This document shows positions 5,718-37,590 of a stretch of DNA of 46,523 nt, one piece after another. The notes beneath the pieces were generated by a model. That model saw only the letters and a list, made by a program, of their open reading frames with translations, was not told the origin of the DNA and did no database searches. Positions within the stretch are counted from its first letter, which is position 1; each line of letters begins with the position of its first letter. A program made the translations under genes and the position numbers. The DNA comes from an uncultured Bacteroidaceae bacterium (GTDB taxonomy: Bacteria; Bacillota; Clostridia; Christensenellales; CAG-917), in the NCBI GenBank assembly GCA_964367645.1, contig CAYIYN010000001.1, positions 1-46,523 of the forward strand, read 5' to 3'.

Positions 5718-5730
5718 TTTTTATTATAAT

Positions 5731-6498: not shown

Positions 6499-6515
6499 AA
6501 ACCCTCCTTCGGGCT

Positions 6516-6713: not shown

Positions 6714-6772
6714 ATTTACCTCCGTGGCGGCTAGCCGCCGATTATTATTTATTTTGTTTTTACAAATGCTTA

Positions 6773-7831: not shown

Positions 7832-7834
7832 ATA

Positions 7835-8959: not shown

Positions 8960-8988
8960 AATTTAGCCTCCAAAAATAGCTGTATTTT

Positions 8989-9017
8989 ATTATATCATTC
9001 AGCCTTGCTTTTTTCAA
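8989..9017 (-). promoter_or_regulatory. putative sigma-A promoter of the SPFH/zinc-ribbon operon
   Basis: On the minus strand: TTGAAA (-35), a 17-nt spacer, then TGaTATAAT (extended -10). It ends about 30 nt upstream of the ATG at 8959. Confidence 0.5.
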
Positions 9018-9047
9018 GCCAATTCTAAATTATCAATATATCTTCAT

Positions 9048-10200: not shown

Positions 10201-10228
10201 AAGTGGAGATGCTTCCGCATCTCCACTT
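10201..10228 (-). terminator. 12-bp perfect stem-loop 35 nt downstream of the giant gene stop (putative terminator or 3' stabiliser)
   Basis: AAGTGGAGATGC-ttcc-GCATCTCCACTT. No clear U-tract follows on the minus strand, so intrinsic termination is uncertain. Confidence 0.5.
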
Positions 10229-10262: not shown

Positions 10263-13200
10263 TTAAATCAAGCCCGCAGTTCTTGCAACAATTATTGTGG
10301 TCTGAGTTCCCTCTTTCTGTCCGTTAGGTCTAAACGTGCTGATATAGTCTGTGATTGCTGACGTGGAGTCTACCACCGCACCGATGACGGGCGTTAGCAC
10401 GTAAATGACTTTTCTGTTGTTCTGCGAAGGCAGAGTGTAGGTGCTGCTTGACGAAGCGATTACGATTGCGTGAGAAACTATCGCCTTGCTTGGTTCGTTA
10501 GAAGTTTCGTTGATGTCAAACGCGTAAGCCATGCCGTACCAGGCAATCTGTGCACCGTTTGCAGTCTTTGTGGTGAGCGTCGTTCCGCCTGTTCCGCTTG
10601 TGAGTCCGGTTGTGGAATATCCGCTCATATCGACTGCGGTTATGCCAAACGGAATGTTGATCTTTTCACCGGTTCCTAGTTGGATACCTGCATTGTACTT
10701 GTTTGGTGCAGTTCCGTTTCTGCACTCGTTTACCGTAACTTTGAAGTTTGCAGGCATGCTGAGCGTCACATAACTGAATATTCTCGAATTTATGCCGCTG
10801 TTACGGTGCGATTCGTCCCAACCGGTGCCAACGTTGGTTGCCGCCCAACCGCCGACTTCAAGATTCTGCATATCCACACCCGCACTTATGATGTCCGGAT
10901 TGGAAATTGCGAACGTCACTTTGTAGGCTTGAGGCAGGTTGTAACTCTTGTTGGCGAGAGGCGAAATAACATACGGTGTGACAGCCGTGCCTCCGCTTAT
11001 GGCTGAGTTGTAGTTTGAGTTTGCCGAGCCATTGCGCGAGCCTGCAATCAGAGTTGTTCCATTCGATTCTTCATCGAGATAGAAGTCCGTTGTGATGCTG
11101 GTTGCAATCATCTTTTGAACAAGGAACGGCACTTTGAAGGTTTGCGTTGTCTTGTCCGCACCGACAAGGAATGCTTGCAGATAGACCACGCCGCCCTTGT
11201 ATTCGGGTCGGAAGGATGCAAAGTTCCATATCAGTTTGTAATTTTCGTCACCGCTTACACTATATGTGACTGCGCCGCCGTTTTCAGTGTCAACCGTCAA
11301 TGTGTCAGGCAATACCATATCGGATTGCAAATATTCATATGGGTTGATGTAGGTTTGCCCACTTGCGACAACGCCGTCATAATAACCGGTAAGTGCTTCA
11401 AGCGATTCGTTGCCGTTGGTGGAAACTCTTTGTGCCTTTCTTGAGTTGACAACAAATCTGCACTCCACTTTCTGTTCCGCAACGCTTTCGGTTGTTCCGC
11501 CGATAATCGCTCTTATGACATATTCACCGCCTTCCCATGAAACCGAGCCTGCCGATGCTGCAACGCCGAAGTCCCAAGTAATGGGCACGCTTACGGTGTC
11601 ACCGCCGACAAGTGTTACCGTGCCGCTGTTCGGGAAATACTTGTAGAAGTCGTTAACTTCTGAGAAGATATCCAAATCGACAAACGGATCGAAGGTAAAG
11701 GTGGGAACCCCGCCTACCATTTGCATTTTGCTGGAATTCGCTCCGTCAGCGAAGTTTTCCGACGTGAACGATATGCCGCTAATCGAACTATTGGTTATCT
11801 GTACAGGTACGCGAACCGACGTATAAGACGTGTTTGCTACGGTTGCACCGCCGACGACTATGTTGACGGGGCTGGTTATCTTTGCTGTTGCGTAAGCCGA
11901 GCCGCCGTTGACAGGATCGCTTCCTGTGTAGTTGTATGACAGTGACGTGAAGTCCCAATCAACGCTTAGCGACTGTGACACCGTGTAAACAAACACGTAG
12001 TACTTGGTGGCATCGTATCCTACAGGCAGTGTTTCAACATACTTGTACGTTCTCGATTTTGTGTTGTAGGTGTAGTAGTACGGAGTCTTTGACGTATCGC
12101 GAACTTGTTCGCCGCTGACTGAGTCAAGAGTTGTCACAACGTTGCCTGAAGCATCAACCGTTCCGTTTCCGAGTACCTTGTAGAGGTATCTGGAAGAATC
12201 GCCCGCCCATCTCACGTGCGACAAATCACTGAGTGAATGACCGCTGTGCCAAGCAGACAGAGTCACGAACTTGCCGTCTGCATAGAACGTTGTATCGCTC
12301 TCATAGTTGCCGTCAAAGTATGCGTCGTCAGAACCGCCTTCAGTGCTATAAACGTTGAACACCTTTCCGTTTGCCGCGCTGTAACGAATATCGTTGAATG
12401 ACATCGTTGGCGATGCAACGTCGGAATTGTAGCGGTTCAAATTGACTGCTTTGAAGATAAAGTCGATTTCCATCGGTTTTCCGTTGCCGGTTAAGAAGAG
12501 TTCTACACTCATATCGGCTGTGGGATATACGCGAATAGTTGCCTTTGTCGCGTAGTCTTTTGACGTGTCTATGGAGCGAAGGTACTCGGCAATATCTGCA
12601 ATCGAGATTGTGATGTAGTAATCTTTGATCTCTTCGCTGCCTGCAAACTTAATTCTCAGTTTGTTGGGCAGGTCGGGATCGCCGAAGCTGTAAACGTTGC
12701 TGACAGTTGCCGATATAGGCAGATGTGTTTTGTTGTCGTAGGCGATTTCCACAAGGTTACCCTTTGTGGAATCGGTGGACCCATAAGTATGGACATAAGT
12801 TGAGTAGCGTTCCGTCACGCTGCCAAGTGTAAAGTCGTCAAACGAGAACTGAGCAGACTTGACAACTCTGTTGAGAACGGTAAGCGGCACTGTGAACGGT
12901 TGTGTTGAGCCCTTAGAATAGCGTGCGACGGAATGTCCGACTTCGTATGCACCCTCTTCATAATCCTCTATTGCAACAAAGTCTATCGTTGTGCCATCTC
13001 CGTCTGTGACGAGATAATACGCGCCGTCTTCTGCTGCATAGATATAGGTGAAGTTAAGCACATTGTCGGGATTGACCATACCTGCCGCGATGATGACACT
13101 GTTTGCGGGCCACTGCACCAAGAAGGTCTTTACTGTTCCGTCTGCCAATTTTGCGTCAAGCGCTATGGGCAGGTTCATGCCGCCTTGCTCCGAACCGAAG

Positions 13201-16200
13201 GATGAATACATGAAAGGATCCACGACTATCGAACGATACAGAGGATTGACTATGCGGGATATTGCTTTGTTTAGAACGGTGAACTCATAATCGATTGCGA
13301 TTGCTTTTGACTGAGTTCCCGTATTGTAGAGCAAGTTAACTGTCAAAGTGATTGCTTCGCCGTAGTACTTGCCGGGATTGGTATAGAAGTCGGCGGGAAG
13401 CGTGTAAGTTGCCTTGACGCCGTCAACGCTTGTTTCAACACCCTCAAGAGCGACTGAAACGTTGCTTCCGCTGCCAAACGCTGTGGAACTTTCTCCCAAA
13501 GGATCGATTTCATTGCCGTTTTCCCAAACTATGCCGCTGACAGTAACTGCTGCAACGTCAAGAGCAACGGTAATATCAACCGTCCTCCCGTTTGTCGCCG
13601 TAACGGTGACCGTTACGTTGCCGTTGTAACCTGCCGCGTCGTAATCTACGTTCCAATCAAGACCGATAGTTTCATCGTTGCCGTCGATTGTCATAGTGCC
13701 GGTTTCGGGCAGACCTTCAAAGAACTTATCCGCAGTCAAACTGTAGATATATCCCGTCGCAGTTTGAATGCCGCCAAAGTTGAGGATATAGTCCTCAACA
13801 ATTTGGAAAGTGTATTCCAACTCGGCAAGATTGCCTCCTACGTAAGCGATGCGGGTGAATTGTCCTGCCGCGATTTCTTGTTCGCCGGGCAGAGTTGTAT
13901 CGTTCCATTCAACACTCACGTTGTACGCAACTGTTCCGCTGGTGAAATTGACGGTTGCCGTTGTGGGCCAAATCCATTCTACAAACGGAGAGTAGCTAAC
14001 TAAGGCGATACCACCCGTTCCGAATCCGTCGATTTCGACTGAATCGACATCCGGTGCCATTGATTTCATCTTAAGACCGCTTGCAGATCTGGTGACAAGA
14101 TAAATCTTGACGTCCAGTCCGCCTTCAGGGTAGCGAAGTAGAGCGGCATCGTAGAAATAGAGTTTGCGCACCACATAATCACCATTGGCGTCATTCTGAA
14201 TTTCAGCGTTTGTAGGAGCGGAATTATTTACCCAACCGAGCACCCCTTCCAAACTCTTTTCGGTGTCGTAATCGGTGAGTTTAACCGTTGCGTATGTGGG
14301 AAGTACCCAGCTGTCCAGACGGTTATATTCCATGGTAAACGCCGCTTGATTACCGGTGTAGGACACACTGGATGACAGCGTGTTGCCGTCAAAGGTTAGC
14401 GTGCCGCCCGTTAGGTTGCCCTCGCCGTCGCGGTGAGTCGTATCAAGAGTAATGTCTGTTACGGATACGTTGGGCAGGTTGAGCGGTATTCTTATTCTCT
14501 GGTTGGCTATCGTCATATAGACATAAGACAAGCCGCCTGCCGCGGAAACAGCCATAGTGTTTGTTTCGATTGCGTTGACGTAAGCAATTTCCTTGCTTCC
14601 GTCGCTGAGTTCGACAACAACGACTGTGCCGTTTCTCAAATCGCCCCATTCAGCCACGTTAAAGTAGTTGTCGCTATTTTCAGCATAGGAGTCGGACATA
14701 ATGTTGAATGCCTCACCTCCGCTCATAAACTGAGCATAGCCCGTTGCCGTGTAATTGGCGATGTTGGTAAGTTCATTGTCCGAGATGACGTAGTTACCTT
14801 CAACCATACGGTTAATTAAGCCGTTTCCGTAGAGATCCTCTGCCCCCGAGCCTGAATAGAAGTACACTTTTGTGATACTCTTTGCGGGAACAGAAAGTTT
14901 AAGCGTTATGCGTTGAGAAACATAACCAGTATCGGTCTTGACATTCCCCAAAGGATTTCCGTTTGTATCGAGTACGTCGGCTTCGACAGTCGCGTAAATC
15001 GTACCTGCTCTGTAGATATTTTCTAGAGGCTTGGTCAAAGCGGAGTTGGAATAGTATTTAATGGTTTCCCATTTGGGAGTCATATAATGCGCCGTGGTGC
15101 CTGCTTCTGCATAGTTTACAAGCAGAGTGTTGTAGTTCATTTCAACGCCTTCTTCTTCCCAAGTGTATTCATACCACTTAGGATTGAAGGTCGCCTCTTT
15201 CTGCACTCTGACAGACGTAGTGGTCGCAGTCATCTTTGTAACGTTAATCTTGACATAAACTTCTTGGATTCCGCTGGTATGAGTACCGATGAGCAGTTTG
15301 GCATACAGTGTGCCGTCGCCCTTGAATCCTTGATAAGTATAGTTGTCTGAAGACAAGCCTGTCGCACGAGAATAAGTCGTTCCGTCCGAATTGAGCACAT
15401 AAGGAGCTTCAATCGAGAGCGAACCGCTGCTCAGTGTCACCAACCCGTCAATGTTCTTGAAGTTGACTTTGGCGTTCAAAGCGAAGCTGGTGTCATTGAT
15501 TTCGTTGAAGGCGTAGGAGTCGAAGACCAAAGATTTATTCTCCAGCGAATCGAATACGCGCGGTGCAACATAAATGCGGACCGTAACGGGCTGAGCCACG
15601 TTGCCGTTGCCGCTTACATACTCGCTGTCGGTGCTTAGGTTGCCTGTCAAGCCTGCAATTGCTTTGCCGGTTTCATCGTAGATAATGACGGTGTTAAAAA
15701 TGTCACCGCCGACGTATGCAGTAACTTTGACGTCGATGCCTTTATAATAATCATAGCCATTGCCTTCAACAGCGATTGCAGCAAGTCTTGCATAGAGTTC
15801 TGTCAAATCCCACTTCACGCTTAGGTCGGTGAAACTCTTGCCTGAAGTGTATCTGCCGCTCATCTTGGTGAACGAACTGACATAATCCGCAAGGCTGTAA
15901 CCGTCGCTTAGTATGCTGTCGAGTTTGAACGCATCGAAACTTTCCATATTTGGCAGATAAGTGCCATCGGATTTTGTCAAACGCGTGATTTTGCTGTCAT
16001 TGACGTCGTATCCTGTGACACTGACTTCCACGGAGTCTTTTATTTCGTTACTACCGCCCCATTGATAGGTAAATCCGACGTTATACAAGCCGCCTGCCCA
16101 ACCGAATGAGAAATCATCGGTGCCTCTTAACAAGGTGCCTTCATAGTCCCACGAAATTGTGCCGGCAGGAGCATATCTGCCTGTGGGCAGTTTGCTGTAA

Positions 16201-16899
16201 TCAAGCACAGCATAGACCGCTTCGCCAATGGTTTCCGTTACGATTGAACCGTCCTCGTTGTACTGCAATGCCGCAGTATAAGCAGGCATAAGTTGGTAAA
16301 CGTTTTCGTCATCATTGAGCAACTCGTTGCCTTCCGCATCACTGCCAAGCGTAGGATTGCCCTGCAATCTCGCTTTGAGCATATCGCCTTCGTCGTTTGT
16401 TGCGTATGTTCCAAACGTGTATGTGCCGCCCGTCAGGAAACGTATCCTCACCAAGTCGGGCAGAGAAGGATTGTATTTGCTTGAAGCGGTGTTGATGTCA
16501 ATCATCAACGTTTTCTGCTCATAACTGACTTCTTGTCCCGCAGGAGCGGTGTTGACGTAGGCGTATATATTGCTCAGTGCATAATCGTTTGTGATATACA
16601 CAGGAATTGCATACAGCACCACGTTGAGCGCGTAGCCGTAGACGTTTCCTGCAAAGTAACGACCGCTGCTATCCAGTGTCGCCGCCGTATAGTTGACCGC
16701 GGAGGCGTCCCAAATGATGGCAGTGCCGCCCAAATAGTCCTGATCTCCGAGAGTGGTCGTGCCTACGCTGTCCAGTTGGTTGCGAGTCCAGGTTACTTTG
16801 GCTTTTTGCGGGAATATGTTTCCGTTTTCAAGCATGTATTCGTTCAAAGTGCCGCTATAGCCGTTGCTTGTTGTCGCCCAGCGTCTGCCGGGATCGGTG
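10263..16899 (-). other. C-terminal ~2,200-aa array of Ig-like (Big_4-style) beta-sandwich repeats of the giant lipoprotein
   Basis: At least a dozen occurrences of '[LF]P..(A/T)(T/K)V.....(D)G......V.W[DN]'. Examples are 'LPTYATVKLTDYDTEKSLEGVLGWVN', 'WPTTATVNFTSGTVAYNVSVEWND', 'LPETGTMTIDGNDETIGLDWNV', 'LPIALDAKLADGTVKTFLVQWP' and 'FPNSGTVTLVGGDTVSVPITWDF'. The start boundary is approximate. Confidence 0.5.
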
Positions 16900-31800: not shown

Positions 31801-34800
31801 AAATCAATCTTGAGTGCCACTTCGGCGAAATCGATGTCCAAAGACAGCTCCATGCCGTAGTCGGGCAACCTTTCGATGGCCGACGCAATATCGCTGTTAT
31901 CAGTGCCTTCAGTTGAGGTCAAGTTAATGATTAACCCGATAATCGACATGATAACTTGCTGTGTGACAAGCAGAGAAATCTTGTCGTTTGCAAGAGCAAG
32001 GAGAATTTCAAATGCCTCTTGTTCTTCGCCTTCGGAGGCGGCAAGAGCCTCACCGTCATCCTCGCTGCTTCCAAAACCTTCAAGCAGACCTTGTATCGAG
32101 CCGATAAGTAGGCTTGCAAACTGGGTGTCGTGGATAACGAAGTCCTTTTCGGACAGAATGCCCATATCAACCCAAATGTCGGAGCCGTCCATATAGACGC
32201 CAAGCATGGGTTCGCCTTTGACAACGTTGTATAGTTCAAACACAATTTGAGTGCTTTCCGGGTTCTCGAGCGAAAGGTTGGCGCCCAAAACCAATTGAAT
32301 ATCGAAAAGTATGTCTTCGGTAATTTCAACGCCGAATGCCAGCATGATTTCTTGCGCGAAGATGCTGATTATATCGTTAATAGGAAGTTCGCCGTCTTCC
32401 CAAACTCCCGTCGTCTGATTGAGTTGAAGTTTCAATTCAAGAGTGAGGTCAAGGCTCAAATCAGAGAAGTTATCAAAGCCGGTGTATGCGCTGTCGATAA
32501 CAGGGAAGTAAGGATTTACCACGGTCTTGTTCTTTGCAAAGCCGATGCTGAGTCCTGTCAGTTCAATCCCTAGTCTGAGAGGATCGATGCCGACTGAAAT
32601 GCCCAGTCCGTAGCCGTTCATGCCGTAGTCCAGTCTAAGATAACTGTTTTCTGGGTTTAGTTGGACAAATTGTTCGACATCAATTTGCTTTCCTGCAAGC
32701 AGTCCGACGATCATGCCTATCATGCCCGACGCAAGGTAAACGGTCAGGCTTTCGCTGTCCATCGTTAGACCGTGGATTGCTCCGCCGATAACTGTTGTAA
32801 TCGTGTCGAGAATACTAGGCTCGGTTTCTGCCGCCGCTTCTGCTTCGGAATCGCTTGCCGCACCCGCATCGGATTCCCCGTTTGCGCCAACGCCCGAGAG
32901 CAATGCCGCCAAATTCATGCCGGCAAGTTTGAGATGTACGTCGTCTATTATGTCAACGTTGCCGTCGATATAAAGAGTGCTTGTAGCAAGTTCCGTAACT
33001 GCGTTAGGATTGTCGCAAAGCAGAGTTATCGCAAGCATACGCGCCGCTTGAGCGTGAGCCTGAGTATCCGTTACCGCTTCATAATTGCCGTTGTAAATTT
33101 CGATGATAATGTCGGAGTGCGACAGCAGATAATTTATATCACCGATTTTGTTGGGATTGAACCGTAAGACTGCGGCAATGCGGAAACCAAGTTGCTGAAT
33201 AATGTCATAGTCGATGTCAAACGCAATCAGCAGTCTGTCTAACAGACTGACAACACTTTCGTTGGTTGTTGCGGGATCCAAGAAAAGATTTACCCAGTCG
33301 CCCACAGGCCATTCCGAATTATCGGTGTTGAAAGCCTCGAGGTCAATGGTGCCGGTCAACTCCACAAAAACCTGTTCGAGTCCTAAGGAAATATCGCCGA
33401 ATTCGTCAAAACTCAGCAGACTCATCAGAGTGTAGCCCGTGTCGGAACCGTCGAACACAAACTGTTCTTTTCCGTTTATGGGATTGATTGACTTTTTGTT
33501 GTGGTAACTGTCGATAGAAAGACTAAGTCCGTCAACATAAATTTGAACTTTGCCGGTTTCGTTGTTATCTGCGTCTTTGACTACAACTCCGAGGTCAAGC
33601 AAGTTTTTGCTTTCTGCCCAGGACAGTTCAAGCCACACGTCGAGTCCGACGGCGTTAATACCCACTGTATCCCAAAGGAACTCGGCAAGACCTTGAACAA
33701 GTTCTATGCGGAAGCTTTCTGTGGATAATTTTGCCGCAAGTTCAAATGCGATATCAAAATTCGCGGAGTCAAACTGCCAGTCGGCTGCCGCGCTTGCTTC
33801 GTTTTTGGGATTGACATAGATGCCTTCATAATCCCACTTAAACGTGCCGTTTTCGTCTTCAACGTACGCTTCTACGGCTTCGTATCTGGTTCCGATATAA
33901 GCATCGCCTTCGACGATGGCGGTATAACCCGTGGCGACATATTTATACGTGCCGCTTGCGGATTCAACATAATTGTTGCCTACTTTTTCATATCGGACGC
34001 CAATGTATGATTCTCCTGCGGCTATCTCTATGTATTCATAAACCGGTTTGTATGCTCCTTCGTCAGACTGCTTATAGCGAACACCCTTGCTGTAACGAGG
34101 TCCGTCATAATAAGCGGCGTTGTTAGAATCCATTTGCTCTGCCGTCAGTTCAGAATAACTGTTGAGAAGGAGAGGCAGAATAATTTCAAACAAATCCAGT
34201 TCAAGCGCCACTTTATCAATACCGAAATTGGTGGCGTCGAGATAGATTTTGCCGTCCAGATAGTAGATGCCGATAAGTAATTTTTGGTCCGGAGTCCCCC
34301 TATCTTTGCTTATTTCGATGAGCAGTTCCGATTCGTTGCCGGCAGTATAGACGGCATCCGTGCGTTTAAGCAGCACGTCGAAAAGTGGTTTGAGGTCAAG
34401 TGAGGCCTCAACACCAAGATTGTAGTCAAGGTTGAGCGTTTCTCCGAATATGAGGTCGCCGCCGCCGCCCAAGGGCGTCGTGCCTGCGTTGATTGTGCCC
34501 TCTATGCCGAGGTTTAGAGCAAGCCAAACGTACGGTTCGGCAAACACGTCAACAAATTGATATTCACTGTCCGCAGGGTCGAGGTTTGAGCCTGCGGGCA
34601 CTTCATTGATGCCTGCGTTAAGATTGCCCAGCGCGATGTCGAGTTCAAAATTGCCGCCTATGCCTGCATAAACAAGAAGTTCAAGCTCCGTCAAATTTAA
34701 GCCGTCGGCGAGCGTCACGCGGATACCACCGTTGAATGGTTCGTCTTCAATGCCGATTGCAAATTCTGCGGGCAGTCCGCCGATAAGTGTGAATAATTTT

Positions 34801-37421
34801 TTTATGAGGTTGGTTGCGAGATAAATTTCAAGATAATTGTCGCTCAGCTGTATTCCTTGAATAAGCGCGGCGATGATACCGATGATGTCGGTGTCGCCAT
34901 CTGCGGCGGAAATCGCTTCGCCGCCTGCCGCAACGGCCTCTGACGTACCGCTGAGGAAAGGCTTGATGTCAACCATTACGTTGAGGCCACCCAAAATGTC
35001 ATTGCGCGTGTGCAAATACACAACCAAATTGTCCAGCCAAATTTCAATGGCGGACTCTGTTGCGCCTTGTTTATAGAGCGACAAGTGCACTTTTGATTTG
35101 ATGAGGCTATCTGTGCCTTCGGACAAGTCGAGGTTGCCTTCGACTTCAAGTACAAAGGTGGAATCGACCGTTTCGAGGAACTGAATTAGAGCCTGGAAGA
35201 GCAACGAGCCGTCGCCCATGCCGTATTCTAACGAAGTGAAATCGCCTTCAAGAGCGTAAAGCCCGACTTCGGCTTTCATCGCGACGTAAACTGAACTGAT
35301 TGCTCCCAAAATCGATTCGCCCGTAAGACCTTCGGAAAAATCCATAGGAGCAAATTCCCTTGCGTGTGCGGAAAGTCCCGGTCCGTCCTTGAATTGATTG
35401 ATGCGGTTGTTGAAATATTCCGCATTTGAAAGTGTTCCGAAACGCAATCCGAGTTTCAGACCGACGCCCAAAACTCTTGCGCTTTCAACTGTGCCGCCGC
35501 TTGAAGAGCCAAGCGCGATGTCAACGTCGAGTTCTTTGTTTTCGCCAAATCCGAGATTCCTAAAGACAACGGATGCCGCAGTAACAGGTATTGTGCCTCC
35601 TGCCATGTCGCCGGTGAAGATAAGTCCCCACAAAAAGTCGAGGATTTCCTGCGTCAGCGAAAGGTTCAAACTTTGAATGTTGAAGATATTGCCGTCTTTG
35701 ACAAGTTCGCACTGTGCAAGGATTGCGCTGATCATTCCCATCGTGTCGGTTATAGCGGCAGAATTCCCTTCGGGATCGGACACCAAACTCTGCACGATTT
35801 CGCCGTTATCAAGTTTGTCGGTGACTGCAGTGTACATATCGACCGAAGTCTGCGCTTCGGCTTCGGCTTCGCCGCTGAGCAATCCGCTGACCAAATCTCT
35901 CACCGTTCCGCCGAGTGCTCCCTTTATGACGTCGACGAGTTTGTAAATCAGTTCGCTTATGAGGGCGTTCATATTGACGTCTTCGATGACGAATTTACCG
36001 GTGCCGACTATACCTGACAAATCGATATAAACCGACTCCTGACTGCCAACGTAATAAATTCCGGCTCTAAGTCCTCCGTTATCACCGAGGATTTCCACAA
36101 GGAGATTGGTTTTCGCGTTGTCATGAGTGTTGATAACGCCGTTGATGTTTACGGTCAAACTGTACGTATCACCCGACAAGCCTATCGTCTTTTGCATTAG
36201 AGGGCTGTCAGGCGTGATAACGTCTTGCAACAGACCGGTCAGCAAAGTGCCGAAAGCGCCCACTGCGCCGCCGATTGTAATTTCCTTGTTCGCTGTGTCT
36301 ATTGCAAGGCGCAGAGAAAGATCGAGTGTGAGAATTGAATAATCTTTTGCCGCCTGAATGTCTATGCCGCGCTCTTGAATGGCGGTTGCGACATCAAGCT
36401 CGGGTTCAATGCCCGTTGAGAAGTTTTTAAATCCGAGAGAAATGCCGACTTCGTGGCTGTAATTGCCCAAATCGGTCTTCTTGCCGAATGAGTTTAGAGA
36501 AATGTCAAAGCCGAGATTAAGCGCAGTCATTGCGCCATTTGTGATATCGACTACGACTTCGATTGCCAAATCTTGAAGAGAACTGAATTTATTGAGGTTA
36601 AGACCGAGGAGATTGAAAAGTAAATCGACTATAGCAGTTTGATCCGCCAGCAAATCGCCGACAATGCCGGAAACGATGCCGAGCAGGCTGCCCAAAGACA
36701 TAGGCATGACAACGCGCTCCTTGCCGCCGCCTAAGTCAACAACGTAGGGATCTTTTATGAGCATTGTGCACAAAAGCGCACTCAAAGGTTGATCGCCGAG
36801 CAAATCGAGAAGATCTCCAGCGTTCATACTTAGCAAATCGGTGAAAATCAGTTGAGAAATAGTGCCGCCGAGAAGACCGCTGATGATGTCCGCCGCCCCG
36901 ACAAAGAGTTTCGTGAAATCGATATCGTCGGTTGAAACGACGTAAGCGCCTTTTTTAAGACCGGTACAATCCATCACCAGTTGGCTGTCGTAATAATAAA
37001 CACCGACCAGCAACTGCTGCGTATTGGAGAAAGCGCCCGACGCGGTGTCGTAATTGATTTTTATAAGTTCAAACAAAAACTCCGAATTTTCGTCGTTTTC
37101 AACGTCGAATGACCCTGCAAGACGTACGGTGAATTCATTTCCCGTTTCGTCTTTCAAATAGTCAAGGTACATCGTGACGTCGAAGTTTATGAACTTGTCG
37201 TCATTCCTTCCCGCCACTCCGAAACAGGCATTTTGGAGTTTATCCCAAGCAACCAACGGCGTTATGTAGGAAGGATCGTCTTCAATATAGTTTGGCGGTG
37301 TCGGGGGCACGATCGGCTTGTTGCCCGATACATCGCCGACATTGGACGTGGAACATGCGACGAAAACGCCGAGTAACGACACGACCAAGATCAAAAGCAG
37401 CGCTAATTTCAATCTCTTCAT
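10263..37421 (-). CDS. giant modular surface lipoprotein (9,052 aa), function unknown
   Basis: One stop-free frame runs for 27.2 kb. I chose the ATG at 37421 over the ORF-track start at 37478 because AGGAGGAAATT precedes it directly and the product then begins with a signal peptide, MKRLKLALLLILVVSLLGVFVAC. The protein contains repeated modules, acidic linkers, Tyr-rich inserts and a C-terminal Ig-like array (see findings). Confidence 0.9.
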   Translation of the reverse strand: MKRLKLALLLILVVSLLGVFVACSTSNVGDVSGNKPIVPPTPPNYIEDDPSYITPLVAWDKLQNACFGVAGRNDDKFINFDVTMYLDYLKDETGNEFTVRLAGSFDVENDENSEFLFELIKINYDTASGAFSNTQQLLVGVYYYDSQLVMDCTGLKKGAYVVSTDDIDFTKLFVGAADIISGLLGGTISQLIFTDLLSMNAGDLLDLLGDQPLSALLCTMLIKDPYVVDLGGGKERVVMPMSLGSLLGIVSGIVGDLLADQTAIVDLLFNLLGLNLNKFSSLQDLAIEVVVDITNGAMTALNLGFDISLNSFGKKTDLGNYSHEVGISLGFKNFSTGIEPELDVATAIQERGIDIQAAKDYSILTLDLSLRLAIDTANKEITIGGAVGAFGTLLTGLLQDVITPDSPLMQKTIGLSGDTYSLTVNINGVINTHDNAKTNLLVEILGDNGGLRAGIYYVGSQESVYIDLSGIVGTGKFVIEDVNMNALISELIYKLVDVIKGALGGTVRDLVSGLLSGEAEAEAQTSVDMYTAVTDKLDNGEIVQSLVSDPEGNSAAITDTMGMISAILAQCELVKDGNIFNIQSLNLSLTQEILDFLWGLIFTGDMAGGTIPVTAASVVFRNLGFGENKELDVDIALGSSSGGTVESARVLGVGLKLGLRFGTLSNAEYFNNRINQFKDGPGLSAHAREFAPMDFSEGLTGESILGAISSVYVAMKAEVGLYALEGDFTSLEYGMGDGSLLFQALIQFLETVDSTFVLEVEGNLDLSEGTDSLIKSKVHLSLYKQGATESAIEIWLDNLVVYLHTRNDILGGLNVMVDIKPFLSGTSEAVAAGGEAISAADGDTDIIGIIAALIQGIQLSDNYLEIYLATNLIKKLFTLIGGLPAEFAIGIEDEPFNGGIRVTLADGLNLTELELLVYAGIGGNFELDIALGNLNAGINEVPAGSNLDPADSEYQFVDVFAEPYVWLALNLGIEGTINAGTTPLGGGGDLIFGETLNLDYNLGVEASLDLKPLFDVLLKRTDAVYTAGNESELLIEISKDRGTPDQKLLIGIYYLDGKIYLDATNFGIDKVALELDLFEIILPLLLNSYSELTAEQMDSNNAAYYDGPRYSKGVRYKQSDEGAYKPVYEYIEIAAGESYIGVRYEKVGNNYVESASGTYKYVATGYTAIVEGDAYIGTRYEAVEAYVEDENGTFKWDYEGIYVNPKNEASAAADWQFDSANFDIAFELAAKLSTESFRIELVQGLAEFLWDTVGINAVGLDVWLELSWAESKNLLDLGVVVKDADNNETGKVQIYVDGLSLSIDSYHNKKSINPINGKEQFVFDGSDTGYTLMSLLSFDEFGDISLGLEQVFVELTGTIDLEAFNTDNSEWPVGDWVNLFLDPATTNESVVSLLDRLLIAFDIDYDIIQQLGFRIAAVLRFNPNKIGDINYLLSHSDIIIEIYNGNYEAVTDTQAHAQAARMLAITLLCDNPNAVTELATSTLYIDGNVDIIDDVHLKLAGMNLAALLSGVGANGESDAGAASDSEAEAAAETEPSILDTITTVIGGAIHGLTMDSESLTVYLASGMIGMIVGLLAGKQIDVEQFVQLNPENSYLRLDYGMNGYGLGISVGIDPLRLGIELTGLSIGFAKNKTVVNPYFPVIDSAYTGFDNFSDLSLDLTLELKLQLNQTTGVWEDGELPINDIISIFAQEIMLAFGVEITEDILFDIQLVLGANLSLENPESTQIVFELYNVVKGEPMLGVYMDGSDIWVDMGILSEKDFVIHDTQFASLLIGSIQGLLEGFGSSEDDGEALAASEGEEQEAFEILLALANDKISLLVTQQVIMSIIGLIINLTSTEGTDNSDIASAIERLPDYGMELSLDIDFAEVALKIDLASELINFGVYILQPKISANRNSKVESMISEARYKWSLDGNYSVLTVGDKAEGESQFNIAHAYEKNASVYTKTADTEYLVDKVYYKYTGAQEGDDRFQDYEDNKIVYFELEIAIEYGLDSTYILLDAASAALYDDADRYSKRVTDGVYVQDPNGLYIKDPIELGGLVDFIVGLDAVKGLVTGMEEGLVKNLLNALFQQLGLNIYLNDEMSDNFVLKLSGALDLEAIGFDDILQGKFDELEFSLELILAALDLGVELIFNPGEFTEAKLGIYLIEGEIFLDTSDLGGPQIKLDLNFLLGLIGVGSAEALTTADEEESASFDILGLLNVLIRRIILQVSPRYKGGGEFWYNNFDSIDILFYSDMLPAFIKFLLNIDFEMEGIDFDENQSGIFLKFNDADMDDKLSLGIKMVTATGYNVGLKLGLGLKLDIAKTDYEGIVDASELLHFVDITDYIVNIVGLINGDTADYYKPSAESYYTFLPNAEGAYMFDIASNAFRLIKADENIGEAQRYERHVVRNMAGALVYDSVPATQASPAVYSELTEINAIYEVVGSGAADSYKSRYFVISDTATQEIRVDIAARDYYVFSKNVQGTYTEDTILKRIFDASATISGVAADARYAISTAEKVYNYVESANGNFVFDASLDSYRAIAEGEVVSTQTYLRNVSLSGLSSDKLAYERYSTNYDSQNIKLSLNLGLSFDSKAIASNDRLGGLIENWLSDVLIAAKTTSVFGDTVLGRVSLKVDLAAVDIAALLGEDTFYVMTQDQIAAAADEDKFILEGGSYVAYDATRHASGVSNGTIAVYGKESKFVKFLENSDLDTIEIALELLELDENGEILLNSEGKPTIMAGIYLYRGMLYLDGTNLFDIAGNYSYVPNFTELLMRLITGEDATAEDSGEGASDNSALAASSADITVERDATLMLLYSDLGIQIVLMKSLIAMVLAVLLPDLGSVEEIFNVFDITLGFDSGRYEYEPFTDGLGTGVDEEAVIANIYEGTTYKVDTVTESAAGAYYKVTNGTDYYISIYDGTGAPAGATLYDVTFAATIEDDEAFTHAAVYYLQQDRVVTLSDGETAYQDVYGLVIPVFERYSYYDKITWSLNDTDGNYAVIGNWEGDEFADNAEFFLRSNYTLYIDDEGSLTGKSETNTTTYDVGTTYYIFYGCAYREIDHFADRAYGYELEYSGTNYRRLSPYTKIDEFYIGLDINVEDISLGIKLGGIALAFGASDKLIPDYVLNGVSRDNPEVVIPLMPFYESSVALNFSIELELGVTEGLLDIGTIFSKLLGDIEGIVIEMPETAKGYSSAHFRLDVSIILDMSKLTNSEISVEFFSITETGAEKLWIGLYYLQNIFYLDAAVLEMPKLSITSDLISGLIEQYLGDILVKDIYTENEIPSSADSEALSAASVVNSEFDVLLLISKRQLMVNIANKFIRMLIELLVEGLDLDDYISDQLIAGAGIQLNFNDGVDLVVEVTLGLEGDRYIEVTDRTQIQAKGVMEGVAVEGDYWFSSNNATGMYVFDAASGKYRAVAKGEVISGARFDRNELLNIGDIDANTTYFRRTSSDAGNLEATDAELNLLVAIRNLNISFMLEHNYTLTAEEIAEYQEITQIDRFMLTETIDITTSFKSGAENDIDLTEVLGYFFPEEDYDNLAAIISAMADGGGDVNRKIELVINVEIKFAALLNYFRQFDFNSGIGNINEDMSIMDIIEIFKNVIANIDSINIGDLLSYINASIIIQTTADRKFGNEYFEETHTLLGLYVVSGQFEKRSGAALEEIALEDRYDHYYENHTGEYFYNETTETYQPRYEGMDPLIDTFYSYDATYCYANPLGQYERVRGGLYIDLSYFSIPSIYINSYGLRDALASLLEGGISLGASESEALSVADDETASATALPLLSNEIAGYLTAFAWGIRITSMFIQVIVNPDYINQIIGLLMTGDSKLEFNYNFTKKPFVQINTDNATYFYKDYSQAEEDSLRVSNGSGPNLDELKVSEFRFEKVENDETGTYYIDSKGLYQLRSDLTAEQEAAYLISGKHFYTLSTYEAYIKVITGSGINDFHYQELTKATSIEKDNAEKCFVTFDKDGDNYTFNSEDNGAYIYVVNSYVLAETASSAQKEAALGDYAFYITTSGAGSYVNTGDGQYEYVSDTSPYTAIELYTFTRLNDEDMLVAQIDKTVRKPLITVQLYLWEYELGINIGSPEFGVQGYKYITKDEYETENGVAAPEYDLYIKAEDYLYGFIGGEETKNEWILNQTERTAYLNGAETDTGIKIVENYVNSDGSANNLRYMYYRGEYFAITVEDLYVFSGNEFVNVVSLFGGEGPTKVNFAADEMIDFTSGKNFANDPDCSNNPDFFLRVDIGESFDVYVRLTKAYLYEQEWYRNVYVKDTAENYERYGVDAEAVKYVRVTSENVLNVEYIDYASFEKSTQINGAEGTYYWNLVSRNFTLNTALENEPAATALSAEEIKSYVYDAWTRGYMSLSEYLYTYHYDVATYEEMNAILYATTLYSAYTEDEEGNYVWSDEERGFIEKPEGSVATTYRANSIEYVDSDDMYFISLTIRGGLYTTGYYDYVSVADYLDLLNAGREIPYTMASLINPLSPAYVAPEKRFTTNQGEYFQTSSDNFQYVLYTTGVETTLAEVLGGLLGDLDGVMVRIMESFTGEILFEIKINLAFKLNWTPGLSLEIYDLDLAIDMWRRENDATDQTDGTLTHFLGIYYTHDADTGIAGLCVDLEWIFGEGAKLAIDLSDYTIEELLAGLLAGDSEAILGGSSSEALTAASSESGGYVETAANPLLAGAYINILTRALAVQITKGFFELLLNALGVDLGSIELPNFMVKLKLNLAPWSVGFTLDVFTADGTQGVLDLTLVLQLFNGTEDSSVIDFGTIESFTAKDTTYKNITTIEQQPDVADNYINYYANFIRDDSVSYEDAYLKVGNAVNKGKLADGITDSGVVLADAVQVGPFVQKTDFKYYVKADEVYTETQFNEFKSEGIWMYRLPAISYVRVLDSALFDEYGAPIWDPEVKGDLYVLNDGINAMPYSTDVSNFTKVTDFASLSIDKAYYKPNRDFSNYTRVMSLNLNNLINGGDLDIVELLGDLETAEIGLSLDVDLELSDVINWTKQMSKFIDTDLYSYFEFILASISTSNTEFTSVIGGTLDLKVKLDIGNLIEGISGGAGVFDMLRGLEAYIKFTYNTNFHGADNIACVEIWAQITDEGLLNLYLNLGDIGRVVGFGDFFGKLKIEGIDLSGLGGETDTASAEAIAAAPEGTNTGIIPENIWDILNIILGQLLVANDIVAVGLNADLFGDLISMLSPEMESIAQYLPKLKITNDMDTSGVVINLGGGQPSIIVNLGFAAGYEEFITLAEYEGTYGEDWTGTTYIVADATGYARAEGTSGEYVLRGITTGGNNYSLIYGSVTAGMGVTRYALSGDSTFTVSESGQYIVTAEAYDKPEYLLKATYNEWAETDWSGVTFDIDSDGNGYISTTRTDLTSTSAYMMLSSTEYALIDFAYPEWAGNRYDVNASGIGFSESATGKYLKIGDLALRLGIGNLSLWLNKDKLTVATNSVGVYIDEEDTPITDYADFKQSTLSLDIGLNISLYGSDDTTNDANVVDLSELIGLVLGLIDSTGDYTGSIFRARITDEIGNAIGPFLRLNINAFLDFVDFTQTVIALEIIQYDDAGVLNEQALLAVYLYNDNIYIDGTALLGSTAKISIGGLGLSSILEDALGGFLGHEPATGESEAYAASIENAGNITLHDKAYLAAIINPQYFSLQLSLATINAIANRIYAARGDELHDLLPNLGDVFIESFGYVPNEYGTDDRTTHLSIAAKFTEGLYGSIDVMELGINAHKSGDYLAKLHENYNAATHAGLTRYNHILGGFVSLESGEEYSGQRYNIVAAGATERGKYIQSGDLYVKRTDAQLESAAVGTGFNFVSALEGDYKYQEDSYIVSETGDKVIAYSEVYNIETGAIGLDNIGVGLNLSLTITSSGLGAYDEGFNETFINWALGLLGGLLGGVDLINGYTALTELEKNGQNAYVALTFAERYGTWTELSDSEKDPNSTTYRNIAGVSEYNGSDYVVTTDTSYVAGKSYFKYEDTRYTGQRYDANGTANSSGTFKKVLSGKYYGTRYSLVEDEYVEDANGNYKSSFGITLPSQTFVIDIALKADINLPAILAYGISGIIYSDFALDITIGALSNEKFLSAYYLGSSRLEKTNNIYKLSPNGTTFSDALYVDASGLGLGKIKLQGFAGILGGKQATVDVNAGSTSDALTAGGVNASASSTEDETAIAAAMAIFLEIELESGRLAIKMERSMLDVLLGILGLDLSTLGITMPPIQSVALVLNYDLVPGNTTDKTAINNLGINAVLDSRGTVLAVDIKDLSVAIGKKTLDIEHLVDTVSYGYVGVTYSKSAGTSSLIQNIIDSINPALKIDIDRKVWTGAVGYNSGGGAETYVETENVYTKATLTGVRANQKWGSGTNGYRIYLFLDAVHPNRQTGEGNNLQIGIGFSNNSLYLKNLDIGSDFINGIINDTVGGIALQNDDGSPFIGLLKTGDGDTATYAYPTADTASEAMTTADKEKTAEAGTAADYSAYKYPLELVGLVEGLSLNLFNSNGYIPYYAGMSAIPAGRADDTRFISVQVEFNKDAFNELLVFLYCTVLGLFQNKMEGTTDGGIDQNQQETNYFIDMVKLANASAYNAGAVGQLYGDGLTSRRAYEFNNYALNGEHATNELYNLFEQIDQSLTNNQPTSVRVNLMEPYVRSLPATIYSWLLEDLITTLTGTNLAGLATFLASNTTQNLSKLVATILPLPFATATACNPTANIYIDLMPNAADYGLSGYTMSKGIQAIELYINCEKAGPGAAMNFYRSAITQRYECKNSTTINNLGKTYVVGNTSAIYRSEGFQYYANGNGYDDELSWSSGTSPHYTTKDDGSFDWLSLRITPYANSNTSIKDPMLGFLEAETAELMNGQVEAPEEIVVTDPGRRWATTSNGYSGTLNEYMLENGNIFPQKAKVTWTRNQLDSVGTTTLGDQDYLGGTAIIWDASAVNYTAATLDSSGRYFAGNVYGYALNVVLYAIPVYITNDYALSNIYAYVNTAPAGQEVSYEQKTLMIDINTASSKYNPSLPDLVRIRFLTGGTYTFGTYATNDEGDMLKARLQGNPTLGSDAEGNELLNDDENVYQLMPAYTAALQYNEDGSIVTETIGEAVYAVLDYSKLPTGRYAPAGTISWDYEGTLLRGTDDFSFGWAGGLYNVGFTYQWGGSNEIKDSVEVSVTGYDVNDSKITRLTKSDGTYLPNMESFDAFKLDSILSDGYSLADYVSSFTKMSGRYTSGKSFTDLSVKWDLTELYARLAAIAVEGNGYDYYKGIDVKVTAYVGGDIFNTVIIYDETGKAIAGLTGNLSTDSEYVSGNGNVAQPVTVRIYVAPRVFDSLENKSLVFDSYAFNEINDTSFALNAKVNFKNIDGLVTLSSGSLSIEAPYVLNSDGTTYSRATGLSSDNYTYQGFKGDGTLYAKLLIGTHTSGIQEVYVKINVTKMTATTTSVRVQKEATFNPKWYEYTWEEEGVEMNYNTLLVNYAEAGTTAHYMTPKWETIKYYSNSALTKPLENIYRAGTIYATVEADVLDTNGNPLGNVKTDTGYVSQRITLKLSVPAKSITKVYFYSGSGAEDLYGNGLINRMVEGNYVISDNELTNIANYTATGYAQFMSGGEAFNIMSDSYAENSDNYFNVAEWGDLRNGTVVVVELSDGSKEIAYVNAIETNTMAVSAAGGLSYVYMTIANQRIRIPLNLPNVSVTDITLDTTHRDGEGNLTGGTLTFDGNTLSSSVSYTGNQAAFTMEYNRLDSWVLPTYATVKLTDYDTEKSLEGVLGWVNNSAPTNAEIQNDANGDYVVRKLYFYDAALLRYPEGGLDVKIYLVTRSASGLKMKSMAPDVDSVEIDGFGTGGIALVSYSPFVEWIWPTTATVNFTSGTVAYNVSVEWNDTTLPGEQEIAAGQFTRIAYVGGNLAELEYTFQIVEDYILNFGGIQTATGYIYSLTADKFFEGLPETGTMTIDGNDETIGLDWNVDYDAAGYNGNVTVTVTATNGRTVDITVALDVAAVTVSGIVWENGNEIDPLGESSTAFGSGSNVSVALEGVETSVDGVKATYTLPADFYTNPGKYYGEAITLTVNLLYNTGTQSKAIAIDYEFTVLNKAISRIVNPLYRSIVVDPFMYSSFGSEQGGMNLPIALDAKLADGTVKTFLVQWPANSVIIAAGMVNPDNVLNFTYIYAAEDGAYYLVTDGDGTTIDFVAIEDYEEGAYEVGHSVARYSKGSTQPFTVPLTVLNRVVKSAQFSFDDFTLGSVTERYSTYVHTYGSTDSTKGNLVEIAYDNKTHLPISATVSNVYSFGDPDLPNKLRIKFAGSEEIKDYYITISIADIAEYLRSIDTSKDYATKATIRVYPTADMSVELFLTGNGKPMEIDFIFKAVNLNRYNSDVASPTMSFNDIRYSAANGKVFNVYSTEGGSDDAYFDGNYESDTTFYADGKFVTLSAWHSGHSLSDLSHVRWAGDSSRYLYKVLGNGTVDASGNVVTTLDSVSGEQVRDTSKTPYYYTYNTKSRTYKYVETLPVGYDATKYYVFVYTVSQSLSVDWDFTSLSYNYTGSDPVNGGSAYATAKITSPVNIVVGGATVANTSYTSVRVPVQITNSSISGISFTSENFADGANSSKMQMVGGVPTFTFDPFVDLDIFSEVNDFYKYFPNSGTVTLVGGDTVSVPITWDFGVAASAGSVSWEGGEYVIRAIIGGTTESVAEQKVECRFVVNSRKAQRVSTNGNESLEALTGYYDGVVASGQTYINPYEYLQSDMVLPDTLTVDTENGGAVTYSVSGDENYKLIWNFASFRPEYKGGVVYLQAFLVGADKTTQTFKVPFLVQKMIATSITTDFYLDEESNGTTLIAGSRNGSANSNYNSAISGGTAVTPYVISPLANKSYNLPQAYKVTFAISNPDIISAGVDMQNLEVGGWAATNVGTGWDESHRNSGINSRIFSYVTLSMPANFKVTVNECRNGTAPNKYNAGIQLGTGEKINIPFGITAVDMSGYSTTGLTSGTGGTTLTTKTANGAQIAWYGMAYAFDINETSNEPSKAIVSHAIVIASSSSTYTLPSQNNRKVIYVLTPVIGAVVDSTSAITDYISTFRPNGQKEGTQTTIIVARTAGLI
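16900..37352 (-). other. N-terminal ~6,800-aa region of divergent modules (protein-level repeats) of the giant lipoprotein
   Basis: 13 acidic linkers, at least 15 copies of the G-[IV]-Y-Y...Y-[IL]-D motif, and Tyr-rich inserts, all read from the translation. Boundaries are approximate. Confidence 0.6.
37353..37421 (-). other. lipoprotein (SPase II) signal peptide with lipobox F-V-A-C
   Basis: MKRLK (positive n-region), then LALLLILVVSLLGV (hydrophobic core), then FVA|C. The Cys codon TGT is at 37355..37353. A Ser/Thr/Pro-rich tether follows (STSNVGDVSGNKPIVPPTPPN). Confidence 0.8.
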
Positions 37422-37435
37422 AATTTCCTCCTGCT

Positions 37436-37454
37436 GCGCCTTACGCGTAAGCGC
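37436..37454 (-). promoter_or_regulatory. palindrome in the 5' UTR of the giant gene (possible operator or RNA hairpin)
   Basis: TTACGCGTAA (37441..37450) is a perfect 10-bp palindrome. It extends to GCGC(c)TTACGCGTAAGCGC and lies between the predicted -10 element and the SD. Confidence 0.35.
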
Positions 37455-37482
37455 ACGCCAGCACAGAATAATATACATTATG

Positions 37483-37511
37483 ATTTTATCGCCAAATAGT
37501 TATATTGTCAA
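37483..37511 (-). promoter_or_regulatory. putative sigma-A promoter of the giant gene
   Basis: On the minus strand: TTGACA (37511..37506), a 17-nt spacer, then TAAAAT (37488..37483). The -10 element ends about 60 nt upstream of the ATG at 37421. Confidence 0.6.
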
Positions 37512-37560: not shown

Positions 37561-37590
37561 CTAAAACCGCGCCTTAAATTGGGCGCGGTA
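37561..37590 (-). terminator. rho-independent terminator of the GH20 gene
   Basis: On the minus strand: ACCGCGCC-caatttaa-GGCGCGGT followed by TTTTAG. It lies about 55 nt downstream of the stop at 37645, which insulates the giant gene from upstream transcription. Confidence 0.7.

Follow-up and report, generated by a model that had tools for sequence, protein, structure and literature searches.

The contig CAYIYN010000001.1 (assembly GCA_964367645.1, deposited as an uncultured Bacteroidaceae bacterium; GTDB lineage Clostridia, Christensenellales, CAG-917) carries on its minus strand a gene of 27.2 kb whose product is a predicted lipoprotein of 9,052 amino acids. Throughout, the window denotes the whole stretch of DNA analysed (46,523 nucleotides, positions 1 to 46,523), to which all nucleotide coordinates refer. 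We propose, with a rough probability of 0.5, that the giant protein is a membrane-anchored extracellular surface fibre, acting as an adhesin or a spacer, with an immunoglobulin (Ig)-like distal end. The chain is predicted to have a four-part architecture consisting of a signal peptide, an array of ~14 modules, a neck and a series of Ig-like domains, which map as follows.

37353..37421, minus strand: lipoprotein signal peptide, amino acids 1-23 (MKRLK, hydrophobic core, lipobox FVAC with Cys23).
19059..37352, minus strand: ~14 divergent tandem alpha/beta modules of 260-880 amino acids each, amino acids 24-6121 (hhalign, junction hidden Markov model (HMM) and AlphaFold2).
16821..19058, minus strand: conserved, non-repeated neck, amino acids 6122-6867 (identity, invariant columns, no alignment to modules).
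10266..16820, minus strand: divergent C-terminal beta domains of ~100-130 amino acids, apparently of the Big_4-like Ig type, amino acids 6868-9052 (W-motif, hhalign, Big_4).
13101..13178, minus strand: core of the Big_4 match, amino acids 8082-8107 (26.8 bits against a cut-off of 22.1, E 3.8e-6).

The N-terminus, MKRLKLALLLILVVSLLGVFVAC, contains a lipobox with Cys23. It combines the charged n-region, hydrophobic core and lipobox ([LVI][ASTVI][GAS]C) by which bacterial lipoproteins are recognized; position -3 is F in the window protein and L or F in the orthologues, an accepted variant. Ala22-Cys23 is invariant in two alignments of the family (A1 and A2), and a [LF][VTAI]AC lipobox is present in every full-length orthologue, which bears out the lipoprotein signal peptide proposed in the original prediction. 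The signal peptide is the highest-scoring 19-residue hydrophobic stretch (Kyte-Doolittle 2.88; the few others above 1.8 reach at most 2.31) and the sole strongly hydrophobic segment of the whole protein. The mature protein has a mass of 984 kDa, an isoelectric point of 4.2, a net charge of about -700 and a cysteine content of 0.2%. With one N-terminal hydrophobic segment, few cysteines and strong negative charge, it would be extracellular in character.

Two short motifs recur along the protein: 'G[IV]YYxdGxLY[LIV]D' and, ~35-45 residues past most of its copies, an acidic linker 'SEA[LV][ST]A[AD][DE]'. An HMM iterated from six copies of this junction in the window protein found 12-15 copies per full-length protein (n=8), with 15 envelopes representing 14 junctions in the window protein itself. 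The model gave zero matches in locally shuffled or reversed sequences, and when rebuilt without the window rows it recovered 14/14 window junctions. Its best-conserved positions are Tyr9 (0.78), Tyr16 (0.68) and Asp18 (0.62), together with Glu53 (0.48), Ala54 (0.70) and Ala57 (0.59) in the linker. The junctions lie at the following positions.

36846..37019, minus strand: junction motif 1, amino acids 135-192 (leave-one-out HMM, E 6e-7).
35697..36068, minus strand: junction motif 2, amino acids 452-575 (HMM, E 8e-10).
34767..35060, minus strand: junction motif 3, amino acids 788-885, with linker GEAISAAD at amino acid 834 (HMM).
33648..34286, minus strand: junction motif 4, amino acids 1046-1258, split by a window-specific Tyr-rich insertion at amino acids 1088-1168 (HMM).
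32670..33017, minus strand: junction motif 5, amino acids 1469-1584 (HMM).
31911..32216, minus strand: junction motif 6, amino acids 1736-1837, with linker GEALAASE at amino acid 1790 (HMM, E 3e-16).
30684..31013, minus strand: junction motif 7, amino acids 2137-2246, with linker AEALTTAD at amino acid 2178 (HMM).
28956..29276, minus strand: junction motif 8, amino acids 2716-2822 (HMM).
27480..27806, minus strand: junction motif 9, amino acids 3206-3314, with linker SEALSAAS at amino acid 3266 (HMM).
26049..26375, minus strand: junction motif 10, amino acids 3683-3791, with linker SEALSVAD at amino acid 3744 (HMM, E 1.5e-17).
23343..23699, minus strand: junction motif 11, amino acids 4575-4693, with linker SEALTAAS at amino acid 4637 (HMM).
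21876..22226, minus strand: junction motif 12, amino acids 5066-5182 (HMM).
20460..20777, minus strand: junction motif 13, amino acids 5549-5654 (HMM, E 9e-18).
18849..19241, minus strand: junction motif 14, amino acids 6061-6191, the last of the array (HMM).

The segments between junctions were compared by cutting an alignment of eight full-length sequences at the junctions and aligning the pieces with hhalign. Piece 8 matched piece 12 with 98.4% probability over 381 columns, piece 3 matched piece 5 with 97.3% over 204 columns, and piece 6 matched piece 8 with 91% over 341 columns. Because the pieces are homologous over most of their length, amino acids 24-6121 form a tandem array of ~14 anciently duplicated modules. 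A conserved hairpin, 'LLGIYYxdGxLYLDxsxLG..KxxV..DL..LL', closes each module. At most junctions a Gly/acid-rich linker with the conserved core 'sEAvTAaD' comes next and leads into the helix-strand element with which the following module begins; the linker motif is missing at junctions 1 and 2. Self-comparison by BLASTP revealed no internal repeats, and profile methods were needed to show them.

Several features of the array stand apart from this regular pattern. The linker core is kept across paralogous junctions and across orthologues despite lying in a low-confidence, Gly/Ser-rich linker (for example at amino acids 3745-3752, 26166-26189), and it could be a site of processing, modification or docking. 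A Tyr-rich, hairpin-like repeat, 'Y.G.RY......YV....NG.YK', occurs in lineage-variable insertions at amino acids 1088-1198, 5750-5823 and 5900-6013 (33828-34160, 19953-20174 and about 19380-19720); G.RY was counted nine times against 1.3 expected, and the motif is scattered at other positions in orthologues. A similar Tyr-rich stretch weakly matches (E 1.2e-4) an unrelated protein containing dockerin and GLUG elements (P0057). The insertion repeat matched no Pfam family; to the eye, it resembles aromatic cell-wall-binding or glucan-binding repeats, an analogy of appearance. The longest module, 883 amino acids between junctions 10 and 11, harbours a poorly conserved, Tyr-rich insertion (9-11% Tyr; amino acids ~3800-4500, 23922-26024).

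Beyond the array, the neck and the adjoining first Ig-like domains are among the best-conserved stretches of the protein (36-39% identity to the orthologue P0006 over amino acids 6022-7285). Invariant motifs of the neck region include NLFNSNGYQPY and NPSxNxYIDxAP..GIQAIE. A piece within the neck (amino acids 6122-6699) did not align to the modules by hhalign, and the neck had no match in PDB or Pfam. From about amino acid 6870 onwards a '[IV]xW[DN]...GGxY' pattern recurs every 85-250 residues. Segments of this C-terminal region match one another by hhalign with up to 92% probability and match the Big_4 region with 56-60%. Big_4 (PF07532) is the sole Pfam family to score above its gathering threshold in the whole protein, with sub-threshold Ig-like matches close by, and a C-terminal orthologue fragment (P0059) carries a precomputed match to the same family. 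A jackhmmer search started from the Big_4 region did not expand the domain. We read amino acids 6868-9052 as a series of divergent Ig-like domains, one of which reaches a curated threshold.

The original prediction had found none of the usual building blocks of giant proteins in the N-terminal ~6,800 amino acids. This held for classical domains, whereas the N-terminal ~6,100 of these residues form a cryptic, very divergent tandem array. Pfam and NCBIfam searches with ten overlapping tiles each gave no match in amino acids 1-6800, and PDB sequence searches with two halves of the protein, and with profiles of its N-terminal, neck and C-terminal regions, gave no credible match. A Pfam scan of the orthologous family members found no recurrent match, so profile searches of Pfam, NCBIfam and PDB place the N-terminal region in no characterized family. 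The absence of RTX nonapeptides, SLH domains, a C-terminal LPXTG signal and an Rhs core was likewise upheld by motif scans and the Pfam and NCBIfam tiles. An RTX-type giant adhesin secreted by a type I secretion system was rejected, since GGxGxD is absent from the 9,052 residues and Pfam was also negative. A sortase-anchored surface protein was rejected in turn: the C-terminus (...IIVARTAGLI) lacks an LPXTG sorting signal, and the only LP.[TSA]G sequence is an internal LPETG at amino acid 7904, ~1,150 residues before the end and missing in an orthologue checked by eye. For an Rhs or polymorphic toxin there was no Pfam match, and the C-terminal 650 amino acids are collinear and conserved among orthologues (39% mean column identity) rather than variable, so this identity was rejected as well. 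SLH, CW_binding, LysM and SH3b domains were not detected in the Pfam and NCBIfam tiles, and literature searches found no description of the family.

To obtain a structural view of the modules, amino acids 40-900 were modelled with AlphaFold2 from a hand-trimmed 45-sequence alignment. The model reached a predicted local distance difference test (pLDDT) score of 68.9 and a predicted template-modelling score of 0.56, with 477 residues at a pLDDT of at least 70; a model of amino acids 1-1200 from a 4-sequence alignment had a pLDDT of 30. In the former, each module comprises ~8-11 long strands, 10-16 residues in length and interspersed with short helices; the helices at the junctions are longer, and confidence is low in the linkers. 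Foldseek searches of the PDB ranked the beta-barrel of ApoB-100 first (E 6e-4), and the matches included a Staphylococcus aureus hypothetical protein (4eg9; E 9e-4, probability 1.00, template-modelling (TM) score normalized to the target 0.43), for which literature searches likewise yielded no description, and Porphyromonas gingivalis LolB (E 1.3e-3, probability 0.82, TM-target 0.22). Porins, LptD (17th and below) and hot-dog dehydratases followed at lower ranks, and a search of viral structures returned nothing informative. All matches are weak (TM-query 0.15 or less, root-mean-square deviation 10-26 A). As modelled, they would share a curved, open antiparallel sheet wrapped around helices. 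No Pfam match to the LolA_LolB clan was obtained for the window protein or 45 family members at E <= 10, nor any PDB profile match. The predicted secondary structure is compatible with the unclosed antiparallel beta-barrel and helical plug of the LolA/LolB fold. Because the Foldseek scores are weak and no sequence profile supports them, we describe the predicted module fold as LolA/LolB-like and make no claim of membership.

To define the family, 1.84 billion representative proteins were searched exhaustively with HMMER, using amino acids 24-1200 as the query. This returned 54 proteins; apart from the weak match P0057, all appear to belong to one family, as orthologues or as fragments of them. 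Seven of the representatives are full-length (7,286-7,924 amino acids), and their collinearity with the window protein extends from its first residue to about residue 9,045, with 23-39% identity per segment. In the alignment of these with the window protein, identity is ~30% over most of the length and lower in lineage-variable stretches; insertions specific to the window protein lie at amino acids 1088-1168, 1907-1965, 2337-2548 and 5750-5823, and a more variable stretch at ~7250-8000. Full-length members were found in NCBI, ENA and Logan assemblies on contigs of up to 370 kb, none of them named. The exact window sequence is absent from a collection of 15 billion proteins. A word-indexed search with a 1,500-residue query or profiles found 2-3 proteins and missed members of the alignment, and is thus insensitive for this family. 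One N-terminal family fragment (1 of 45 members, alignment A6) has a strong Pfam match to NAGPA (phosphodiester glycosidase; E 8e-24), which points either to a fusion variant or to a gene call that was joined wrongly.

Comparison with a 92%-identical relative (L003) over 930 codons gave a ratio of nonsynonymous to synonymous substitution rates (dN/dS) of 0.11 at a dS of 0.37, indicating purifying selection on the gene. Between the window and the related locus L008, the giant protein is 38-42% identical whereas the flanking proteins are 53-76% identical. The giant protein thus changes at roughly twice the rate of the proteins around it, which fits a surface-exposed protein.

The reading frame itself is well defined. 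The minus strand from 37421 to 10263 is one open frame of 9,052 codons with zero internal stops, as confirmed by the open reading frame (ORF) listing and the translation; from the regional base composition, the chance of so many codons staying open is ~1e-209. The listing gives a single minus-strand ORF, 10263..37478, of 9,071 amino acids counted from the first ATG. We place the start at ATG 37421 because AGGAGG lies 5 nt upstream, whereas the in-frame ATG at 37478, which has no Shine-Dalgarno sequence and sits at the -10 hexamer, was rejected. Signals around the frame are as follows.

37483..37511, minus strand: promoter-like site TTGACA-17-TAAAAT (11/12 matches), downstream of the hairpin of the GH20 gene.
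37427..37432, minus strand: Shine-Dalgarno sequence AGGAGG, 5 nt before the ATG at 37421..37419 (direct sequence reading).
10263..10265, minus strand: stop codon TAA (sequence and ORF listing).
10201..10228, minus strand: 13-bp stem-loop past the stop codon (dG -24.2 kcal/mol, without a U-tract).

These observations confirm the earlier account of a single uninterrupted 27.2-kb frame that is preceded by a Shine-Dalgarno sequence and a consensus-like promoter and followed by a stem-loop. With its promoter-like site, Shine-Dalgarno sequence and lipobox all present, it is a genuine gene, putatively monocistronic. A terminator-like hairpin of the upstream GH20 gene (37566-37589) lies just before the promoter-like site, and a terminator scan did not call the stem-loop at 10201-10228. 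The giant gene contains only one 27-nt tandem DNA array and no long homopolymer runs, so repeat-driven mis-assembly is unlikely; phase variation through simple repeats was rejected in view of the lack of homopolymer tracts. The G+C content of 10263-37478 is 0.45-0.49, 2-5 points richer than the 0.42-0.45 of its neighbours, with a GC skew near zero, and may reflect a composition rich in Gly, Ala, Asp and Glu rather than foreign origin.

Proposals that the 27-kb frame is mis-assembled, or that the gene is non-functional, draw on the finding that the gene is broken in four related assemblies (L001, L002, L008 and L009). The frame switches in L008 and L009, however, coincide with runs of N in the scaffolds, and in the GTDB representatives L004 and L005 the frame is open over at least 4,730 and at least 4,802 amino acids, to the end of the examined DNA. 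Contiguity is supported indirectly by the collinear full-length orthologues in independent assemblies. With seven such orthologues, the low dN/dS and no DNA repeats to cause mis-joins, we consider an artefact or pseudogene extremely improbable. Gene calling in the relatives is itself irregular. In L008 the public calls are antisense ORFs (2,899 amino acids and others) at 1-9531 on the minus strand, while the true frame on the opposite strand is open for 3,319 amino acids. Antisense shadow ORFs reach 3,447 amino acids in the GC-richer relatives, L004 has a minus-strand ORF at 12305-22648, and almost no gene is called across the giant-gene region in L009. The near-absence of the family from protein databases is due in part to such shadow calls and to scaffold gaps.

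In the window, the giant gene sits among housekeeping genes, as the original prediction had it. On one side are genes for KsgA, a radical-SAM protein, TatD, MetRS, two Gate-domain (SpmA/B-like) proteins and a cupin-helix-turn-helix regulator, and between these and the giant gene lie a zinc-ribbon protein, an SPFH/Band-7 zinc-ribbon protein and a Mem_trans permease. On the other side are a GH20 hexosaminidase, an HGSNAT-like acyltransferase, a bPH_2 protein, a GH127-like protein and iPGM. An identical GH20 neighbour is also carried by the sequencing runs ERR5295859 and SRR34068990. The upstream gene set is also found beside the orthologues in L001, L002 and L004, and the downstream set beside those in L008 and L009; since both flanks are syntenic, the giant gene occupies a conserved chromosomal position. 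Plasmid and phage collections contained no homologues of the giant protein, and mobile cargo was rejected on this ground. The housekeeping neighbours, the flanks shared among orthologues and the negative plasmid and phage searches together support vertical, lineage-encoded inheritance of the gene, in line with the stable, lineage-encoded character first suggested for it.

Some neighbouring genes merit separate mention. The trio at 6773-10094 on the minus strand (the Mem_trans permease, the SPFH/Band-7 protein with three C-terminal zinc ribbons and the 352-residue zinc-ribbon protein) is placed directly downstream of the giant gene at three loci (the window, L008 and L009), which could reflect a functional link or merely conserved gene order. 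In relatives with 60% G+C, a 291-residue protein and a PIG-L family deacetylase, not present in the window, lie between the GH20 gene and the giant gene (7417-9245 in L001 and L004, 3791-5628 in L002). The adjacent Gate-domain proteins at 4648-5717 on the plus strand (188 and 168 amino acids) are like the SpmA/SpmB spore-maturation pair and suggest a spore-forming monoderm Firmicute as host. The host is an uncultured, probably spore-forming Clostridia lineage. The GTDB genomes with distant orthologues, L004 and L005, are labelled "uncultured Clostridia bacterium" and "Clostridia bacterium HGM11451". The third GTDB match, the contig of L003 (CAYJCS010000123.1, 4,583 bp), whose product is 92% identical to the N-terminus of the window protein, comes from a metagenome-assembled genome (MAG) that bears the label 'uncultured Bacteroidaceae bacterium'. 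This is probably a binning error, since the other loci are syntenic and carry Clostridia labels. At least one carrier of the family is labelled as a human-gut MAG.

How might such a protein work? In the surface-fibre model, the protein would be exported by Sec and processed by Lgt and LspA, which would leave its N-terminus anchored through diacylglycerol in the outer leaflet of the monoderm cytoplasmic membrane. From there the modules would reach through the cell wall and beyond as a long stalk, with an extended length that we estimate, from typical domain sizes, to be on the order of 100 nm or more. The neck and Ig-like array at the distal end would make contact with a ligand or surface. The polarity of anchoring would be opposite to that of sortase-anchored Gram-positive adhesins. 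Several considerations weigh against this model. Expression, lipidation, surface exposure and binding are all predicted from sequence, and the stalk-and-tip geometry is extrapolated from a model of moderate confidence that covers amino acids 40-900. Beyond the one Big_4 match, the Ig-like assignment derives from weak profile similarity, and no recognized carbohydrate-binding or protein-binding domain was found at the C-terminus by profile searches of PDB or the Pfam scan of members. The best structural matches (LolB, 4eg9 and the ApoB barrel) are lipid-binding folds, which would suit a ligand-carrying role at least equally, and a simple spacer role leaves the conserved linker motif unexplained.

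The structural matches prompt an alternative in which ~14 strung LolA/LolB/LppX-like open half-barrels bind or pass on lipids, acyl chains of lipoproteins, glycolipids or further hydrophobic molecules. The protein would then be a carrier or conduit for hydrophobic ligands that links the membrane with the cell surface or with a partner cell, and would be the monoderm equivalent of the Lpt bridge, of AsmA-like or of VPS13-like proteins. Foldseek places lipid-binding open barrels first (ApoB-100, 4eg9, LolB), the long strands alternate hydrophobic and polar residues on reading the sequence, and one end of the protein is membrane-anchored. These matches have E values of only about 1e-3 and the poor superpositions given above, however; TamB, AsmA, VPS13 and Lpt-bridge structures are not near the Foldseek top, with LptD 17th or lower, and even at E <= 10 no LolA-clan Pfam match appeared across 45 members. 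A cavity or groove in the modules is putative in the model, and the host, to judge from its SpmA/B-like Gate pair, appears to be a spore-forming monoderm, which would leave no outer membrane for a bridge to reach. We regard a conduit as unlikely. A more elaborate form, in which the ~14 half-barrels line up as a hydrophobic track that starts at the membrane, crosses the wall and ends, after tens of nanometres, at the Ig-like tip, with the 'SEAvTAAD' linkers as hinges or processing sites, would be quite unlikely; were it true, lipids or other hydrophobic molecules would be moved to the surface, or to and from a host or partner cell.

It is also doubtful that the protein is a cell-envelope scaffold, a belt, ruler or matrix within or along the wall or membrane whose Tyr-rich insertions and Ig-like domains bind wall polymers. 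Extreme size, strong acidity, a lipid anchor and one conserved position among core genes speak for it, and the lineage-variable 'Y.G.RY...NG.YK' insertions bear a visual resemblance to aromatic hairpin cell-wall-binding repeats. The negative tile searches for SLH, CW_binding, LysM and SH3b speak against it, self-assembly is putative, and evolution faster than that of the neighbours is more typical of exposed proteins. Among the readings considered, the linker motif is accounted for only by the idea of a polyprotein precursor, in which a protease or other modifying enzyme recognizes the 'sEAvTAaD' linkers and yields many surface or secreted module proteins. The motif is linear, lies in a low-pLDDT linker rich in Gly, Ser and acidic residues, and is kept across paralogous junctions and orthologues (E 0.48, A 0.70, A 0.59). 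No protease gene is conserved beside the giant gene, however, the lipid anchor would remain on the first module only, and junctions 1 and 2 are without the motif; moreover, short conserved linker motifs can be structural, for example as docking strands. We consider a polyprotein very unlikely and retain the lipid-anchored surface fibre as the preferred explanation.

Few proteins approach 1 MDa, and the majority of those known are made of recognizable, near-identical repeats. Ebh of Staphylococcus aureus and the BIg/RTX adhesins SiiE, LapA and MpIBP have near-identical repeats of ~100 amino acids and are anchored by a C-terminal transmembrane segment, by LPXTG or through retention in a type I secretion system. 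Like these adhesins, which it resembles most closely in its predicted function, the window protein is megadalton-sized, acidic, predicted to be extracellular, built as a long repeat array that is partly Ig-like, and presumed to be far-reaching. Unlike them, its repeats are large (260-880 amino acids) and so divergent that BLASTP gives no self-match, it has no FIVAR/GA, BIg, cadherin, RTX or LPXTG elements, and its anchor is an N-terminal lipobox, reversing the polarity. Proteins of the LolA/LolB/LppX type are often lipoproteins, and the known members are single domains of ~200 amino acids. With these carriers and S. aureus SAOUHSC_02783 (PDB 4eg9) the modules, as modelled, would share a curved antiparallel sheet with helices on the concave side; they differ in that ~14 far larger modules are joined in one chain, with no sequence-profile similarity and weak structural scores. 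Like the bridge-like lipid transfer proteins AsmA/TamB/YhdP and eukaryotic VPS13/ATG2, and like large lipid transfer proteins of the ApoB type, the window protein is very long and beta-rich, with repeated beta units and a membrane anchor at one end. Unlike AsmA/TamB and VPS13, it has no AsmA/DUF490 Pfam match and a lipobox instead of a transmembrane helix, and its host is apparently monoderm; TamB and VPS13 structures were absent from the top 50 Foldseek matches.

Giant proteins of Clostridia have been described with RCC1, Listeria-Bacteroides repeats, YG repeats, dockerins or leucine-rich repeats, and full-length Omnitrophota giants with many transmembrane regions and a SecA-like DEAD domain (West-Roberts et al., bioRxiv 10.1101/2023.11.21.568195). 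Like the window gene, these are giant genes from MAGs of uncultured bacteria, with large unannotated stretches that call for structure prediction. None of their repeats, transmembrane regions or SecA-like domains is found in the window protein, unlike the Clostridia and Omnitrophota examples; an Omnitrophota-type identity was rejected because the signal peptide alone is strongly hydrophobic and no such Pfam domains occur. Giant bacterial surface proteins are a known class, within which the module type appears previously undescribed and the predicted N-terminal lipid anchor unusual.

Taken together, about 6,800 of the 9,052 residues have no Pfam, NCBIfam or PDB sequence match, yet they are under purifying selection and are kept at a fixed chromosomal position throughout a lineage of uncultured Clostridia. 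The family, largely invisible in protein databases and fully unannotated, defines a new type of large module and a giant protein predicted to be lipid-anchored at its N-terminus with an Ig-like part at the far end, its function being predicted from sequence. If the modules are truly lipid-binding half-barrels, the family would be relevant to the handling of hydrophobic molecules outside the membrane in monoderm bacteria. If the protein is an adhesin, it would be a candidate major determinant of habitat attachment for these uncultured organisms.

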